A model generated the notes under the pieces. The model did no database searches. It saw only the letters and a list, made by a program, of their open reading frames with translations, and was not told the DNA's origin. DNA of 64,000 bases, from NCBI RefSeq assembly GCF_988242995.1, contig NZ_OZ547043.1; one strand, given 5' to 3'. Shown here one piece after another: positions 2,493 to 53,170 of this stretch. The stretch's first letter is position 1, and the number at the start of each line of letters is the position of its first letter. Position numbers and translations under genes: made by a program.

Positions 2493-3890
2493 TTATTGTT
2501 TATCCTGCATATACGGCGTGTAAACCCCGTTCAGACTGTGCAGGAAAGCTACGATATCATCCACATCCTCCTGCGGCAGCTCTTTGCCTACCTGATAGCG
2601 CAACATCAGTTTCACCGCCCCGTCCAGCGTCGGCACATCACCGCGATGGAAGTACGGTGCCGTTAGTGCAACGTTACGTAAACCGGGTACTTTCTGACGC
2701 AATTTATCGCGCTCTTCTTTAGTCACATTCATACGACCAATATCCGCCGCCGTAATTTCACCAAAGTTAAAGTCTTTTTTCAGCCCCAACGGTTCGAAGG
2801 AACGTCCGCCGAGAATAATACCACCATGACAAGTTGCACATTTATTATCTTTAAATAATTGATAGCCTTTTTTCTGTTGTGCCGTCAGCGCATTCTCATC
2901 TCCACGCAACCATTTATCAAATGGGGAATCCGGCGTAATTAATGTTTTCTCAAATTCAGCAATGGCATCAGTAATATTTTCGCCACTGAAACCTTGCGGA
3001 TAGACTTCGAGGAACTGCGCTTTAAGCTGCGGATCTTTTTCCAGCTTAGCAATAATTTCGTCCCAGGATTTCGACGCCATTTCAATCGGATTCAACGGCG
3101 GTCCACCAGCCTGATCCTGCAATGTTGCCGCACGACCATCCCAGAACTGCTCAACGTTAAATACTGAGTTAAATACCGTCGGCGCGTTAATCGGCCCCAC
3201 TGCGCCACCAACACCAATCGATGTTTTTCTGCCATCGACGCCCCCCGCATTCAACGCATGGCAATGAGCGCATGAAATGGTGCTATCCGCCGATAAACGG
3301 GGATCGTGATACAGCGCAAAGCCCAACGCCACTTTTTGCGCATCGGTAGGCAGTTTTTGCGGGATGGGCTGCACCGGTTCATTACGATGATCCGGTGCAG
3401 TGTCATTGCTGGCGTAATATTCCGCGCGCTGTTTTGCAATCCAGGCGAGTATTTCCGCCCGCTCTTCATCACTCACCTTACCCGCCCAGTGTAGCGCGGT
3501 ATAACGCGTTGGTGGCATGGTTTCATACTGCATCACCCATTCAATCTTATTCAGATCGCTTTGCGAAACGGGTTTATCAGCCAGCAGAGCCGCACGCACG
3601 GCCTCGAGGTTAAAAGATTTATATCCAAGCTTAATGTCGTAATCCATCAACTGTTTCGCGCCAGGAATATAATAATAGGCGGGTAATTCTGCCGAAGGCG
3701 TGTGGCAATAGTCGCATCCTTTTTCGCGGAGAAAGCCTAAAACCTGATTATTTTCACTGACAGCAGATGCCTGAACATCAGCCTGTTTACTGCGTTTATT
3801 ATCGTGGTACCACACATAACCAGATAACCCTAAATAGCAAATCGCGACGCCAGCCAGGCCGATCGCGGTAATACGTGAGACCATTTTCAT
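2493..3890 (-). CDS. yhjA: Di-haem cytochrome c peroxidase, 465 aa
   Basis: Track ORF MKMVSRITAIGLAGVAICYLGL...; contains CxxCH haem-binding motifs (CDYCH, CAHCH, CATCH); expected length and position. Confidence 0.93.
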   Translation of the reverse strand: MKMVSRITAIGLAGVAICYLGLSGYVWYHDNKRSKQADVQASAVSENNQVLGFLREKGCDYCHTPSAELPAYYYIPGAKQLMDYDIKLGYKSFNLEAVRAALLADKPVSQSDLNKIEWVMQYETMPPTRYTALHWAGKVSDEERAEILAWIAKQRAEYYASNDTAPDHRNEPVQPIPQKLPTDAQKVALGFALYHDPRLSADSTISCAHCHALNAGGVDGRKTSIGVGGAVGPINAPTVFNSVFNVEQFWDGRAATLQDQAGGPPLNPIEMASKSWDEIIAKLEKDPQLKAQFLEVYPQGFSGENITDAIAEFEKTLITPDSPFDKWLRGDENALTAQQKKGYQLFKDNKCATCHGGIILGGRSFEPLGLKKDFNFGEITAADIGRMNVTKEERDKLRQKVPGLRNVALTAPYFHRGDVPTLDGAVKLMLRYQVGKELPQEDVDDIVAFLHSLNGVYTPYMQDKQ

Positions 3891-4264
3891 TATTCTTCCC
3901 TCACGGTGGTGAGTTATTGTGACCCAGAAAATTTTCCAGAATGCTGCAAACGTCTCTGCGAGACAAAGCCATCATAAAAAACAGGGAAATATGCTTTTTG
4001 ATAGGAATCAATCAATTACATGAATATAAACTATCAATAAGATAGCCTGTGCCTATTACCCAGATCAGGAATGGCATATCATGATTGCGGCGAGAGCAGG
4101 ATTGAATGTTCTGAAAATGAAAAACAACACGAAATCTGTATTTTTATAAATTCCATGGATATTAGTGCGTTATATTTTTTGACAGGTAAATAAACGTGAT
4201 CCACCGCACGCTTTGTCGCCCACCAGGCGGAGCGAATGACTACCCTTAAAGAAAAGCCCGATAA

Positions 4265-5944
<1,680 letters not shown>

Positions 5945-45684: not shown

Positions 45685-46893
45685 TTAAAGGGAGCCATGC
45701 GCCTCACGCAACATTTTCTGCTCTGGCTGACGAATCGTCGTAGAGAGCGCCAGTGACAGAATCAGCAGGGCGAAAATCACGTAGAAGGTCACATAGAAGC
45801 CGCCAAACAGTGAGGCGATAATCGACCCACAAATGCTGCCGATACCGAAACCGAGATAAATCACACCGTAGTTTTTCGCCAGGTTATTGAGGCCGAAGAA
45901 CTCACTGACCAGTGACGGGAACACCGTGATAGTGCCGCCAAAGTTAAACGCCACGCAGGCAATCGCTGCAAAGAACGTCACTGCATTCAATGGTGCAAAC
46001 AGCAGGGCCGCCATACCCACCAGCGAAATCACCTGACCAATGGTGATAACACGGATTCGGGCGATTTTGTCAGACAGTATCCCCAGAACCAGACGGCCTG
46101 AAAGGTTGGCGATGGAAATAACAGTGACTGCATTGGCTGCGGAAACCACATCAAGGTGTGCCAGACTTTGGGCGATATCTTTCGCTACCCCAATCACGTA
46201 CAGGCCGCTCATGCAGGCAGTCAGGAACATTACCGCTAACATCCAGTACTGCGGTTTACGCATCGACTCTGCCAGCGTGTAATCTTTCTCCACGACACCA
46301 TTGCTGGTTTTCACTTCCTGTTTTGGTGCGTCTTTCATTAACGTTGCGCCGAAAACAATCATCACCAGCGCAATCGCTCCCCAAATCACAAAAGTTTTTT
46401 CCAGACCCACCGTTTCCAGCAGCTGCGTGTCGATAAATTTGAACCCCAGGCTACCCAGACCATAAGAACCGATAGCGAACGCGGAGATCAGACCTTTACG
46501 CTCCGGGAACCACTTCACGCAGTTAGAGAGCGTCAGCAGGTAACCCGCGCCATCCGCCAGACCGACCAGCACACCGGCGCTTAACCACAGCATCATCAGG
46601 TTGTCAGAATGCGCTGTCAGGAAGAAGCCTAATCCCAGCAAAATGCCGGAAGCCATAGTGACGCGTTTAACGCCAAAACGTTCCTGTAATTTCCCCGCAA
46701 CAGAAGATGAAATTGCCAGCCCCAGACTTAACAAGCCGAAAGAGAAAGCGACCTGGCTTACCGGCGCATCCAGCTTGGCAGAAAGCGCGCCGTTAAACAG
46801 GCTCCAGGTATAAACCGACCCAAGGGCAAACTGGGTAATGATAGTACCGATGAGTGTCAACCAGCGGGTACGCTGATAATTTGAAGGTGTCAT
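45685..46893 (-). CDS. yhjX: MFS transporter (oxalate/formate antiporter-like), 402 aa
   Basis: Track ORF 45685..46938; conserved start MTPSNYQRTRWLTLIGTIITQFALGSVYTW at codon 16. Confidence 0.92.
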   Translation of the reverse strand: MTPSNYQRTRWLTLIGTIITQFALGSVYTWSLFNGALSAKLDAPVSQVAFSFGLLSLGLAISSSVAGKLQERFGVKRVTMASGILLGLGFFLTAHSDNLMMLWLSAGVLVGLADGAGYLLTLSNCVKWFPERKGLISAFAIGSYGLGSLGFKFIDTQLLETVGLEKTFVIWGAIALVMIVFGATLMKDAPKQEVKTSNGVVEKDYTLAESMRKPQYWMLAVMFLTACMSGLYVIGVAKDIAQSLAHLDVVSAANAVTVISIANLSGRLVLGILSDKIARIRVITIGQVISLVGMAALLFAPLNAVTFFAAIACVAFNFGGTITVFPSLVSEFFGLNNLAKNYGVIYLGFGIGSICGSIIASLFGGFYVTFYVIFALLILSLALSTTIRQPEQKMLREAHGSL

Positions 46894-47121
46894 GGCAGTA
46901 TTCCTGCAGTAATAAAAAGGAAAAATCTCTGCTGACAACCATAACGAAGTGCACTTTATGCCTGGGGAAAAACGGCATGAAATGCCATCAGAACGGAATG
47001 AAATGCATTAGTTCAGGAATGAATGACTCGACAATTATTCACCAAATTTATTATTTAGTAAGTTAGCACCCACTATCGCCACAACTGTTGTTATTCAATG
47101 GTTTCAATTGTATCTATAACG

Positions 47122-47826
47122 TTAAAATCTGGCGCTAACCCCCATCGTATACAGATAGTCGCTATTGTTAGTGGTATTTTCTGCCTGAGATAGCGCAGCA
47201 TAGGCAGCAATATTTTGATTGAGCAACATATCAGCGCCTACGGTGACATCCAGCCAGTTGCCGTTCTGGTTTGTCGCCGTCATCCGGCTCAGGCCTGATT
47301 GCGCCTTCCAGATATTCTCGCCAAATTGCTGGTTATAGCTGATTTGCGCCCAGGGTCGGAGATCGCCAAGCCGGGAGTCAACACGCCAGCCTAAGGTACT
47401 CACGCTGGCATGCCATAACGGATCGGCCAGCGTGGTAGTACTGTCGCCAAACTCGTTATACATCGAGGTGGTTGTGCCATCGTAATGTAATGCCGCGACC
47501 GGGCCGGTTGTAACCTGCTCATATAAAGGAAAATTCCAGCCCATACTCATACTGCTGGTCACATCCACAGGAGTTTCTTCCGCCAGATTGACTTCCAGTC
47601 CCAGCGCCCTTTGGCTACTTTGAATACGTTGCGACAAAATATCGTTGTAATCAGGTTGATGGTCACTATCCCAGGTGTAACGCTCTGTGGAATGTCCGGG
47701 TTGCGTATCAACGATATATTCTTGTTGCCAGGCGTAAGCTGTGTTGAGAAAAAAGGCACTGATTACCACACTCGCCAGCAGGCTTAGCTGCCAGCGACCA
47801 CCGCTTTTTTTTATGATCATTAACAC
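47122..47826 (-). CDS. yhjY: Autotransporter beta-domain-like outer-membrane protein, ~232-234 aa
   Basis: Track ORF MLMIIKKSGGRWQLSLLASVVISAFFLNTAYA...; ends in an aromatic residue (ARF) typical of beta-barrels. The start could be 6 bp downstream. Confidence 0.82.
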   Translation of the reverse strand: MLMIIKKSGGRWQLSLLASVVISAFFLNTAYAWQQEYIVDTQPGHSTERYTWDSDHQPDYNDILSQRIQSSQRALGLEVNLAEETPVDVTSSMSMGWNFPLYEQVTTGPVAALHYDGTTTSMYNEFGDSTTTLADPLWHASVSTLGWRVDSRLGDLRPWAQISYNQQFGENIWKAQSGLSRMTATNQNGNWLDVTVGADMLLNQNIAAYAALSQAENTTNNSDYLYTMGVSARF

Positions 47827-47977
47827 GACTCCAGGGAAGAGCCGAATTCGGCAATATTATTGTCATTGTATGAAGGATATCGGGCATAGTAGCCCTGTAT
47901 TAAATATTGACTTTTTCACCGATGCGTCAAGAAAAGCGGCTGAAATTTTTACGATCGGGTACATAGCGAGGGAAAGT

Positions 47978-48541
47978 ATGGAACGTTGCGGCTGGGTGAG
48001 TCAGGACCCGCTTTATATTGCCTACCATGATAATGAATGGGGCGTGCCTGAAACTGACAGTAAAAAACTGTTCGAAATGATCTGCCTTGAAGGGCAGCAG
48101 GCTGGGTTATCGTGGATCACCGTCCTCAAAAAACGCGAAAACTATCGCGCCAGCTTTCATCAGTTCGATCCGGTGAAGGTGGCTGCAATGCAGGAAGAGG
48201 ATGTCGAAAGACTGGTACAGGACGCCGGGATTATCCGCCATCGCGGGAAAATTCAGGCAATTATTGGTAATGCGCGGGCGTACCTGCAAATGGAACAGAA
48301 CGGCGAACCGTTTGCCGACTTTGTCTGGTCGTTTGTCAATCATCAACCACAGGTGACACAAGCCACAACGTTGAGCGAAATCCCTACATCTACGCCCGCC
48401 TCCGACGCTCTATCTAAAGCCCTGAAAAAGCGTGGTTTTAAGTTTGTTGGTACCACAATCTGTTACTCCTTTATGCAGGCATGTGGGCTGGTGAATGATC
48501 ATGTGGTTGGCTGCTGTTGCTATCCGGGAAATAAACCATGA
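47978..48541 (+). CDS. tag: DNA-3-methyladenine glycosylase I, 187 aa
   Basis: Track ORF 47741..48541 (266 aa) has a spurious N-terminal extension overlapping yhjY; conserved start MERCGWVSQDPLYIAYHDNEWGVPETDSKKLFEM (ATG at 47978). Confidence 0.94.
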   Translation: MERCGWVSQDPLYIAYHDNEWGVPETDSKKLFEMICLEGQQAGLSWITVLKKRENYRASFHQFDPVKVAAMQEEDVERLVQDAGIIRHRGKIQAIIGNARAYLQMEQNGEPFADFVWSFVNHQPQVTQATTLSEIPTSTPASDALSKALKKRGFKFVGTTICYSFMQACGLVNDHVVGCCCYPGNKP

Positions 48542-48978
48542 TTCGGGAAGCGCAACGTTCAGAACTCCCCGCGATCCTCGAACTGTGGCTGGAAAGTACA
48601 ACCTGGGGGCATCCCTTTATAAAAGCGAATTACTGGCGTGATTGCATTCCGCTGGTGCGGGATGCCTATCTTGCCAACGCGCAAAACTGGGTCTGGGAAG
48701 AAGACGGTAAGTTTCTCGGTTTTGTCAGCATTATGGAAGGCCGATTTCTGGCTGCAATGTTTGTCGCACCGAAGGCCGTCAGACGCGGTATTGGTAAGGC
48801 GCTGATGCAGTATGTGCAGCAGCGCCATCCCCATCTGATGCTGGAGGTTTATCAAAAAAATCAACCGGCGATAGATTTCTACCATGCGCAGGGTTTTCAC
48901 ATTGTCGACTGCGCATGGCAGGATGAAACCCAACTACCCACCTGGATTATGAGCTGGCCGGTGGTTCAAACGCTGTAA
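48538..48978 (+). CDS. yiaC: GNAT-family N-acetyltransferase, 146 aa
   Basis: Track [36 protein letters not shown]...; 4-bp overlap with the tag stop. Confidence 0.9.
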
Positions 48979-51280
48979 GTGTCAGTTCCGGACCGTTGTA
49001 TTTTTCCAGCCATGCCAGCGCCGTATTACCCGCACAGCCATTCCCCAGCCGCGAGCTGGGGAGATCTTTGGTCAGAACGTTCACCGCGCCGTTTTTACAA
49101 ATACCGTCAGCGGTTAAATCCAGATCCGGCCAAGCCCCTTCATGAATACAAATCACGCCAGGTTTAATTCCCTCGCTAATGACCGCTCCGGCAAGAATTT
49201 GCCCGCGTGCGTTCCACAACCGAACAATATCGCCATCTTGTATGCCGCGCGCCTGGGCATCGTCAGGATGAATGGTGACAGGCTCACGATTTGCCACCGC
49301 GTACAATTCGCGCAGAGAACTGTAATTCAGCTGGCTGTGCAGACGATGTGCCGGATGAGCAGAAAGTACCTGCAACTGTTCCGGTTCGGCATTGCCCTGC
49401 CATTCGTCCGGCTCCAGCCACATTGGATGCCCAGGGCAATCCGGATAAGCGTAATCGGCAATACGCTGCGAGAAGATTTCAATCTTGCCGCTGGCGGTTT
49501 TTAATGGATGCGCCTGCGGATCGCGGCGAAAATCGGCGAAGCGAATAAACCGCTCGCTGTCCGGGTTTTCCGGCATCTCAATTAACTGGTTGGCTTGCCA
49601 GAACTCAGCAAATGGCGGCAATTCAACCTGCTGGCTTGCCCCGCGCTGCCGGGCAACGTTATAAAACGTTTCCAGCCATTGCAGCTCACTTTTTCCTTCC
49701 GTAAACCGCGCATAGCCGCCCTTCTCCCAACGTTCACTCAACTCGGCAAAGACATCAAAATCATTACGCGCTTCATAACGTGGCGGCACCACTTGTTTCA
49801 TCGGCACCAGATGCTGATTGCTGTAATCGCCGGTCATGGTGAGATCATTACGCTCAAACGAAGTGGTCGCAGGCAGAACGATATCCGCGTGTTTCGCCGC
49901 AGCCGTCCAGAAACATTCGGAGATAACCACCAGTTCCGGTTTTTGCCAGGCACGGATCAGGCGATTGGTATCCTGATGATGAGTAAAGTTGGCACCGCCC
50001 GCCCACCAGATAAAACGAATATCCGGGAAATGTCGGTTCATACCGTTGTGTTGATATGCGCCACCAGGGTTTTCCAGTGCTTCAACAATGCGGGCAACAG
50101 GGATTTTATCTACCGCATCGGTGCCGCCAGGCAAGCTGCCCTGCATGGAAGAGAGCACCGCAGAACGCCGCGTGGGGTTACCACCATTGGCAAAATGATA
50201 AGAAAGACCAAAACCGCCGCCGGGTGTGCCGATTTGCCCCAACATTGCCGCCAGCGTGACGATCATCCAATGTTTTTGCTCACCAAACTGTTGACGCTGC
50301 ATTCCCCAGCCAGCCATCAGCATGGTCGTGTTTTGGTGGAAAAGAGCCGCCAGCTCGCGGATTTTCTCTGCGTTAACCCCACAAATCCCTGCCGCCCATT
50401 CGGCGGTTTTGGCTATTCCGTCACTCTCGCCCAGCAAATAAGAGGCGAAGACGGCATAACCGGTGGTGCAACGCGCCAGAAACGCTTCGTCGTGCCAACC
50501 ATTTTCCACCAACGTATGGGCGATCCCCAGCATCAGCGCAACATCGGTGCCCATGTGCGGTGCCACCCACTCCATTTTATCGCCAAAGAAATCGACGGTT
50601 TCCGATCGCATTGGATCAATGCAGATCAGCTTTTTCCCGCTGTCACGCAGTGCGGAAAAGTAAGAAAGCCCCTGCTCATCGGATGCATTCCAAGCAATTT
50701 TCAGCGTATTGAGTGGATTAGCACTCCACAGCACCACAACATCGCTATGTTCCAGCACCAGCGGCCAACTGGTTTGCTGTTGATAAACTTCGCTGCCACC
50801 CACGACATACGGCATGATCGCCTGTGCCGCGCCGGTCGAATAATCCCCCAGATGCCCGGTATAACCGCCTGCCAGCGCCATATAGCGTTGTAATAATGTC
50901 GAGGCCTTATGCAGCACGCCGTTTGAACGCCAGCCGTAGGAACCAGCAAAAATCGATGCCGGACCATAAGCCTCACGAATGCGTTTATGTTGTTGGTGAA
51001 TAAGCTCCAGCGCCTCATCCCAACTCACACGAACAAATTCATCCTGCCCGCGAATGCCTTGCGGTTTTTCCGGTGACGCAAGAAAGCCTTTGCGCACCAT
51101 TGGAAATCGTACCCGCGTATTGCTGTGAACCTGGTCGCGAACCGCGCTCTGCAAGGAGTTTTCCATTCCTGTGACTAACGCGCCACGCGAGCTAAACACG
51201 GTTTCGCCGTCGGTTTCAACCAGCATCGGCCCCCAGTGGGCGGCAGTCAGAACGGAATATCGTGAGGATGAGTTGGCCAA
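48947..51280 (-). CDS. bisC: Biotin sulfoxide reductase (molybdopterin oxidoreductase), 777 aa
   Basis: Track [41 protein letters not shown]...; the 3' end overlaps the yiaC 3' end convergently by about 32 bp. Confidence 0.94.
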
Positions 51281-51432
51281 ACCGAAGACTCCTGAAAGGT
51301 TAGATGTATTGAGCAGTTAAATATTACTTACAAATTTCCGAGTATTCCCAGGAATAATCTTCATGTTCACGCGGCATAATCTCCCGCCACGGAACCCGTG
51401 GCAAAGAATAAAAAGGTTATTAAGGATTAACA

Positions 51433-52092
51433 ATGAAGAAACGTGTTTATCTTATTGCCGCAGTAGTGAGTGGCGCTCTGGCGGTATCTGGCTGCACAAC
51501 TAACCCTTACACCGGCGAACGCGAAGCAGGTAAATCTGCTATTGGCGCAGGTCTGGGCTCTCTCGTGGGCGCGGGTATTGGTGCGCTCTCTTCTTCGAAG
51601 AAAGATCGCGGTAAAGGCGCGCTGATTGGCGCAGCAGCAGGCGCAGCTCTGGGCGGCGGCGTGGGTTATTACATGGATGTGCAGGAAGCGAAGCTACGTG
51701 ACAAAATGCGCGGCACTGGTGTTAGCGTAACCCGCAGCGGGGATAACATTATCCTCAATATGCCGAACAATATGACCTTCGACAGCAGCAGCGCGACCCT
51801 GAAACCGGCAGGCGCTAACACCCTGACCGGCGTGGCAATGGTGCTGAAAGAGTATCCGAAAACGGCGGTTAACGTGATTGGTTATACCGACAGCACGGGT
51901 GGTCACGACCTGAACATGCGTCTCTCCCAGCAGCGTGCGGATTCCGTTGCCAGCGCGTTGATCACCCAGGGCGTGGACGCCAGCCGCATCCGTACTCAGG
52001 GCCTTGGCCCGGCTAACCCAATCGCCAGCAACAGCACCGCAGAAGGTAAGGCGCAAAACCGCCGTGTAGAAATTACCTTAAGCCCGCTGTAA
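51433..52092 (+). CDS. yiaD: OmpA-family outer-membrane lipoprotein, 219 aa
   Basis: Track ORF MKKRVYLIAAVVSGALAVSGCTTNPYTGE... (lipobox VSGC); C-terminal OmpA peptidoglycan-binding domain (NRRVEITL). Confidence 0.92.
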   Translation: MKKRVYLIAAVVSGALAVSGCTTNPYTGEREAGKSAIGAGLGSLVGAGIGALSSSKKDRGKGALIGAAAGAALGGGVGYYMDVQEAKLRDKMRGTGVSVTRSGDNIILNMPNNMTFDSSSATLKPAGANTLTGVAMVLKEYPKTAVNVIGYTDSTGGHDLNMRLSQQRADSVASALITQGVDASRIRTQGLGPANPIASNSTAEGKAQNRRVEITLSPL

Positions 52093-52195
52093 TCCCTTTC
52101 ATGCCAGGTGATGCAGAAATCACCTGGCATTCTTCAGTTTTCCTTCATCATATTTCAGGCTAAGGTGATCGCCTTATCAGTGAATGGAGAGAAGC

Positions 52196-53170
52196 ATGAA
52201 GCCGTCCGTTATCCTCTACAAAGCCTTACCTGATGATTTACTGCAACGCCTGCAAGAGCATTTCACCGTTCACCAGGTGGCAAACCTCAGCCCACAAACC
52301 GTCGAACAAAATGCAGCAATTTTTGCCGAAGCTGAAGGTTTACTGGGTTCAAACGAGAATGTTGATGCCGCATTGCTGGAAAAAATGCCGAAACTGCGTG
52401 CCACATCAACGATCTCTGTCGGCTATGACAATTTTGATGTCGATGCGCTTACCGCCCGAAAAATTCTGCTGATGCACACGCCAACCGTATTAACAGAAAC
52501 CGTCGCCGATACGCTGATGGCGCTGGTGTTGTCTACCGCTCGTCGGGTTGTGGAGGTAGCAGAACGGGTAAAAGCAGGCGAATGGACCGCGAGCATAGGC
52601 CCGGACTGGTACGGTACTGACGTTCACCATAAAACACTGGGCATTGTCGGGATGGGACGGATCGGTATGGCGCTGGCACAACGTGCGCACTTTGGTTTCA
52701 ACATGCCCATCCTCTATAACGCGCGCCGCCACCATAAAGAAGCAGAAGAACGCTTCAACGCCCGCTACTGCGATTTGGATACACTGTTACAAGAGTCAGA
52801 TTTCGTTTGCCTGATCCTGCCGTTAACTGATGAAACGCATCATCTGTTTGGCGCAGAACAATTCGCCAAAATGAAATCCTCCGCCATATTCATTAATGCC
52901 GGACGTGGCCCGGTGGTTGATGAAAATGCACTGATTGCTGCATTGCAGAAAGGGGAAATTCACGCTGCCGGGCTGGATGTCTTCGAACAAGAGCCACTGT
53001 CTGTAGATTCGCCGTTGCTCTCAATGGCCAACGTCGTCGCAGTACCGCATATTGGATCTGCCACTCATGAGACGCGTTATGGCATGGCCGCCTGTGCCGT
53101 GGATAATTTGATTGATGCGTTACAAGGAAAGGTTGAGAAGAACTGTGTGAATCCGCACGTCGCGGACTAA
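52196..53170 (+). CDS. ghrB: Glyoxylate/hydroxypyruvate reductase B (D-2-hydroxyacid dehydrogenase), 324 aa
   Basis: Track ORF 52184..53170; conserved start [25 protein letters not shown] (ATG at 52196); NAD-binding GxGxxG (GIVGMGRIG). Confidence 0.93.

Follow-up and report, generated by a model that had tools for sequence, protein, structure and literature searches.

Bidirectional intrinsic terminators have reportedly been described between convergent genes by Ju et al. 2019, using SEnd-seq, and a working excludon is defined by mutually exclusive expression. In Escherichia coli MG1655, the program ExcludonFinder has been used to list 165 convergent excludons, and the pair yiaC-bisC is among them, in at least 50% of 58 transcriptomes (PMC12288877). 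Excludon pairs in general were found to have a higher synteny, and 146 of the 165 convergent excludons have overlapping terminators according to TransTermHP; the authors of that study also stated that p19 data could not validate convergent excludons (PMC12288877). Double-stranded products have been collected genome-wide by Huang et al. 2020, who expressed Tombusvirus p19 in MG1655 and thereby trapped RNase III products of approx. 21 nt (PMC7373196). Their Table S3 is restricted to perfectly paired duplexes of 21/22 nt with 2-nt overhangs, represented on both strands at 1 reads per million (RPM) or more, and 87% of genes reach 1 RPM or more in this data set (PMC7373196).

The yiaC-bisC pair analysed here is located in a stretch of 64,000 nucleotides (hereafter, the window) of contig NZ_OZ547043.1 from the RefSeq assembly GCF_988242995.1. 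The two genes form a genuine and old overlap, which in our view is most likely of low cost, locked by coding constraint and accompanied by weak antisense by-products. Both the overlap and its antisense consequences are already known from the K-12 annotation and three public genome-wide data sets; in that annotation the overlap goes back decades.

The shared 3' ends of yiaC and bisC

The first-pass annotation of the window had placed the yiaC stop codon about 32 bp inside the 3' end of bisC, and the open reading frame (ORF) list and the RefSeq annotation confirm this placement to the base (Table 1). The sequence common to the 3' ends of both genes is TTATGAGCTGGCCGGTGGTTCAAACGCTGTAA. The same gene ends are annotated by RefSeq in E. 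coli strain 118UI, to which positions 48400-49400 of the window are 100% identical, and in K-12 MG1655 (yiaC, 3713652-3714092; bisC, 3714061-3716394). The stretch 48400-49400 was found in 5422 of 5426 complete E. coli genomes. As stop codons are unambiguous once the reading frame is known, the overlap is not an annotation choice. Its length is not statistically unusual either: read antisense in the phase of yiaC, bisC averages one stop codon per ~123 nt (19 in 778 codons), and 32 nt is therefore compatible with chance once convergent genes abut.

Table 1. Features at and around the yiaC-bisC junction, with positions in the window
Feature	Position	Strand	Details
tag, 3-methyladenine DNA glycosylase I	47978..48541	+	RefSeq annotation, profile match
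yiaC, GNAT lysine N-acetyltransferase	48538..48978	+	146 aa; stop TAA 48976-48978; ORF list, RefSeq
Inverted repeat (48879-48921) with T7 run (A7 at 48854-48860 on the + strand)	48854..48921	-	3' of the bisC stop
Site of the p19-captured 21-nt duplex	48944..48966	+ and -	+ read 48946-48966, - read 48944-48964; mapped from Table S3 of PMC7373196
Tail-to-tail coding overlap yiaC/bisC	48947..48978	both	32 nt; ORF list, RefSeq
bisC, biotin sulfoxide reductase	48947..51280	-	777 aa; stop TAA 48949-48947; ORF list, RefSeq
Untranslated extension of the tag-yiaC transcript, rich in C and poor in G, antisense to bisC	48979..49260	+	
Hairpin, 8 bp, weak T tract	49042..49062	+	64 nt past the yiaC stop; inverted-repeat/fold search

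YiaC is a characterised lysine acetyltransferase (PMC6199490). The protein encoded in the window matches the NCBIfam equivalog NF007853 with 267.6 bits (cut-off 125) over residues 1-145, and BisC, whose substrates are biotin sulfoxide and, according to the literature, also free methionine sulfoxide, matches TIGR00509 with 1101.5 bits (cut-off 1017.55) over residues 13-775. The C-terminal end of BisC aligns with the end of the Rhodobacter DMSO reductase 1EU1 (...EKYAGAPVTVTVFDTPK, residue 778 of 780), the alignment stopping two residues short of both ends, and the C-terminus also aligns with that of the TMAO reductase 7L5I; it is thus ancestral and not an extension. YiaC was aligned to YjaB (2KCW, 147 aa) up to residue 134. 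With distant YiaC homologues (35-44% identity), the alignment reaches residues 140-141, and these proteins have variable tails of 6-11 residues after the region of M138 and W140. M138 is invariant and W140 nearly so, also in homologues from genomes without bisC. Judged by these alignments, the ends of YiaC and BisC are native and both genes are of normal length. Shared 3' ends and two real genes with native C-termini, the two features of a convergent (tail-to-tail) overlapping gene pair, are therefore both found here.

An annotation artefact, in which one of the two proteins ends earlier and no true coding overlap exists, is hardly credible. It is true of this pair as of any other that short C-terminal tails are seldom confirmed by protein sequencing, and we found no specific support beyond this. 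Against such an artefact stand the stop codons, which are fixed by the reading frame and conserved across genera, the alignment of BisC with 1EU1 almost to the last residue, and the conservation of YiaC M138 and W140, which lie within the overlap, in homologues from genomes that lack bisC.

Upstream, the end of tag and the start of yiaC share 4 bp (ATGA, 48538-48541), for which reason the two genes look like one operon and are probably co-transcribed. In Escherichia, Tag has 187 aa and this 4-bp overlap (ATGA) with yiaC; a Tag of 193 aa with a 23-bp overlap was seen in the gene calls of Salmonella, Citrobacter, Raoultella, Enterobacter, Phytobacter, Lelliottia and Pseudescherichia (extracted loci, 4001-4023). 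It should be noted that bisC is annotated from a TTG codon (51278-51280, - strand), the earliest start codon that the preceding in-frame stop allows; TTG starts are rare for an enzyme of 777 aa. Antisense within bisC there is an ORF of 432 aa (49595-50893, + strand), which has no Pfam match and is probably an artefact of codon bias.

Reciprocal stop codons, conservation and origin

In the overlap, the second codon position of yiaC is paired with the third of bisC, the third of yiaC with the second of bisC, and the first positions with each other. The bisC stop TAA is the reverse complement of a TTA that spans the YiaC codons Ile137 (ATT) and Met138 (ATG), and where the Ile codon is ATC the bisC stop becomes TGA. 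Reciprocally, the yiaC stop TAA is the reverse complement of the junction between a Leu (CTT) and a Thr (ACN) codon of BisC, which belong to the conserved strand LTLTAF. With CTC as the Leu codon, the yiaC stop becomes TGA; with CTG, as in Phytobacter and Lelliottia, it is lost, and yiaC reads two codons on to the next Leu-Thr (CTT ACG), which accounts for an overlap of 38 bp in these two genera. The conserved residues I-M-S-W of YiaC are situated opposite the variable tail of BisC (A-S/N-S/P/A and the stop), and the conserved final strand of BisC (T-A-F-D/E-P-P) opposite the variable tail of YiaC (six residues and the stop). Since each stop is antisense to conserved sense codons of the partner, both stop positions are held in place and the length of the overlap is fixed.

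The overlap is 32 bp long in 11 of the 13 other loci compared and 38 bp long in the remaining two. The 32-bp form is present in six Escherichia lineages, E. albertii and E. whittamii included, as well as in Salmonella, Citrobacter amalonaticus, Raoultella/Klebsiella, Enterobacter ludwigii and Pseudescherichia. The 38-bp form is that of Phytobacter and Lelliottia, in which YiaC is two residues longer. The overlap, in one form or the other, is kept in 8 genera, across which both stops are conserved. A scan of genome contigs with YiaC returned five loci, all from Escherichia; for the other genera, protein searches and look-ups of exact sequences were used.

Dickeya dadantii has a gap of ~550 bp after tag-yiaC and then a ghrB-like gene, with bisC absent (extracted locus, 4001-5010). 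In a second outgroup genome, a gap of 470 bp separates tag-yiaC from a GDT1 gene, next to which is yiaD, likewise without bisC (extracted locus, 4001-4912). As both outgroups keep tag-yiaC without bisC, the tag-yiaC pair predates its juxtaposition with bisC. Within the limits of these sequence comparisons, the overlap is an old feature of the sampled Enterobacteriaceae. bisC would have been placed beside an older tag-yiaC pair, and the overlap would then have been locked by the reciprocal arrangement of stop and sense codons. In a simple scan, the Dickeya gap 3' of yiaC had no terminator-like site; that of the second outgroup had a single weak one, ~235 nt past the yiaC stop.

Nucleotide divergence was calculated as the mean of pairwise differences among ten related taxa, with 10-11 sites per class. 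It amounts to 0.13 in the overlap (32 nt), 0.26 in yiaC alone and 0.19 in bisC alone. At third positions of yiaC it is 0.485 outside the overlap and 0.075 inside, where they are opposite the second positions of bisC; for third positions of bisC the corresponding values are 0.43 and 0.25. In the same ten taxa, the tails are 87% identical for BisC and 72% for YiaC, and the third-position variation of bisC within the overlap results in radical changes in the YiaC tail (S/D/G/H/N, P/Q, V/D/G, L/P/R). The pattern suggests BisC as the dominant frame and the YiaC tail as largely a passenger, and is indicative only, as it comes from a few related taxa.

Retention throughout the family is also to be expected of a selected regulatory overlap, and this speaks against taking the antisense RNA for a by-product. 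However, a family-wide selected excludon, in which bisC (sulfoxide repair) and tag-yiaC (alkylation repair and lysine acetylation) repress each other, is quite unlikely in our view; were it real, that function would be part of the reason why the overlap is so exactly conserved among Enterobacteriaceae. We infer instead that the conservation reflects coding constraint and not selection for antisense control.

Transcript ends and antisense RNA

A ribosome reaching either stop codon needs the whole shared stretch, and full-length mRNAs of yiaC and bisC are therefore complementary to one another over 32 nt. If both transcripts ended before the overlap, only non-stop mRNAs would be produced. That the two transcripts must overlap antisense at their 3' ends, as had been proposed from the sequence alone, is thus required by the geometry, and the published excludon listing, RNA duplex and Rho termination region all agree with it. 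With intergenic space and a conserved intrinsic terminator both lacking, the two transcripts must each extend into the neighbouring gene.

An intrinsic terminator near the junction, possibly a bidirectional one, might keep the antisense overlap short and fixed. Candidates were seen on both strands, namely the + strand hairpin with its weak T tract and the - strand inverted repeat followed by a T7 run (Table 1), and the TransTermHP predictions for most convergent excludons would fit such an arrangement. However, the + strand hairpin sits on the conserved BisC motif LPSSRLGNG, with a stem that is interrupted in Raoultella and Pseudescherichia, and we rejected it as a conserved terminator. The - strand candidate was rejected as well: it is not canonical, it too coincides with a conserved protein motif, and its repeat is confined to E. 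coli and the closest relative sampled and already degraded in K-12, while the T7 run begins ~18 nt past the stem, is encoded by the Q-K-N codons of YiaC and is only a T5 outside E. coli and the closest relative sampled (Escherichia sp. MOD1). A scan of the region for consensus terminators gave 8 matches, none of them on the - strand, which is at the level of shuffled sequence (mean 5.9, sd 2.3). The curated Term-seq 3' ends list none at K-12 positions 3713200-3714399, where no - strand Rho region is listed either, and the drop in + strand coverage described below is sensitive to bicyclomycin. A conserved GC-rich junction hairpin flanked by A and T tracts, the signature of a bidirectional intrinsic terminator, was not found at this junction. 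Taken together, we regard an intrinsic terminator as very improbable.

The strongest local hairpin in the - strand fold is a 20-nt inverted repeat inside yiaC (48790-48834; 80% complementary, 5-nt spacer). An Rfam scan of positions 46500-52500 (E <= 1) returned only a chance snoRNA match of 22 bits, below the gathering score of 50, and the SMRT-Cappable-seq tables mention neither yiaC nor bisC.

For the + strand, Adams et al. 2021 reported a Rho termination region at K-12 position 3714344, classed as antisense to bisC (PMC7815308, Supplementary file 2). This position corresponds to ~49230 in the window, ~252 nt past the yiaC stop. Without bicyclomycin, 90 reads were counted upstream of it and 23 downstream, and with bicyclomycin 60 and 112, respectively (Rho score 7.3, p = 5.5e-14; PMC7815308). 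As the drop is bicyclomycin-sensitive, it is Rho-dependent. Over ~280 nt past the yiaC stop, the + strand has a C/G ratio of 1.4-1.9 (80-nt windows), so that Rho-dependent termination of the tag-yiaC transcript is indicated by a published drop together with a C-rich tract. On the - strand, a stretch with more C than G is located 120-320 nt downstream of the bisC stop, a part for which the published lists contain neither a Rho region nor a 3' end. In our reading of the locus as an old overlap with antisense by-products, the tag-yiaC transcript continues for ~250 nt antisense into bisC and is stopped by Rho.

RNase III processing between the two transcripts, which the first-pass annotation had raised as a possibility, finds direct support in a published duplex, albeit one of low abundance. 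Under the label 'bisC yiaC', Table S3 of Huang et al. contains a 21-nt duplex, AUUAUGAGCUGGCCGGUGGUU / CCACCGGCCAGCUCAUAAUCC, which is perfectly paired with 2-nt 3' overhangs (PMC7373196) and maps to the overlap (Table 1). The first strand is represented by 184 reads (2.16 RPM) and the second by 90 reads (1.06 RPM) (PMC7373196). With 1-2 RPM, the duplex is weak and near the threshold of the table, and it was not found among the high-read clusters (at least 2000 reads per 200 bp) that are named in the accessible part of the tables (PMC7373196). A second published p19 duplex (261 and 170 reads) maps to 50053-50075, 1.1 kb into bisC and within the 432-aa antisense ORF, which points to antisense RNA deep in bisC, well beyond the mapped Rho region. 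Where yiaC and bisC RNAs coexist, they would pair over the overlap and RNase III would cut the duplex at a low level. The effect of the overlap on expression is probably small.

The same data have to be weighed for a functional excludon, in which the overlap would have been selected because colliding polymerases and RNase III cleavage of the duplex set the expression of tag-yiaC and that of bisC against each other, resulting in mutually exclusive expression. Two of the features of an excludon, transcript overlap and RNase III processing of the duplex, are indeed found in the published data; the listing of yiaC-bisC, the arrangement shared by 8 genera and the higher synteny of excludon pairs in general point in the same direction. 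However, an expressed pair whose coding sequences overlap, such as yiaC-bisC, cannot fail the coverage criterion of ExcludonFinder, and p19 data could not validate convergent excludons in that study. A duplex of 1-2 RPM carries little weight where 87% of genes yield at least 1 RPM, and the conservation is explained by the double coding constraint dominated by BisC. Furthermore, it is not obvious what function would connect an alkylation-repair/acetyltransferase operon with a sulfoxide reductase and require their joint control, and + strand coverage is low, with 90 reads per 800 nt. Selection for such an antagonism at this locus therefore seems unlikely to us.

Gene deletions and comparison with known systems

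The overlap has consequences for genetic work, as complete deletion or C-terminal tagging of either yiaC or bisC alters the other gene, and before a phenotype is assigned to a knock-out of yiaC or bisC, it should be verified exactly where the deletion begins and ends. In E. coli BE104 (NZ_CP040643), bisC was deleted by engineering, which left an FRT scar and priming sites of the pKD3/pKD4 type (extracted locus, 3579-3670). The deletion boundary in this strain is 8-9 nt past the yiaC stop, leaving ~40 nt of the bisC 3' end in place and yiaC whole, which illustrates how the overlap limits the ways in which either gene can be deleted. More generally, yiaC-bisC is a clean example of a convergent overlap becoming fixed, in which the stops are made from the partner's conserved codons and variable tails are set against constrained residues.

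In common with the convergent excludons (PMC12288877), yiaC and bisC are neighbours on opposite strands with transcripts overlapping at the 3' ends, and the pair is itself on the list. Most listed excludons, however, overlap through 3' untranslated regions, with a mean intergenic distance of 95 nt, whereas yiaC-bisC overlaps through coding sequences. Among the p19-trapped double-stranded RNA products (PMC7373196), a duplex from this exact site is listed, and differs in being a low-abundance entry. Bidirectional intrinsic terminators and the yiaC-bisC junction both end two convergent transcripts in little space; the former do so by a GC-rich hairpin with A and U tracts, whereas the latter has no such hairpin and uses Rho on the + strand. 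With prokaryotic tail-to-tail overlaps in general, the pair has in common real genes, a few dozen shared 3' bases and conservation above that of the flanks. As in these, the overlap probably arose when a stop codon gave way to the following one in the same frame, within the adjacent gene. Nothing essential distinguishes yiaC-bisC from them, and its reciprocal stop embedding and conservation in 8 genera make it a tidy example of the kind.
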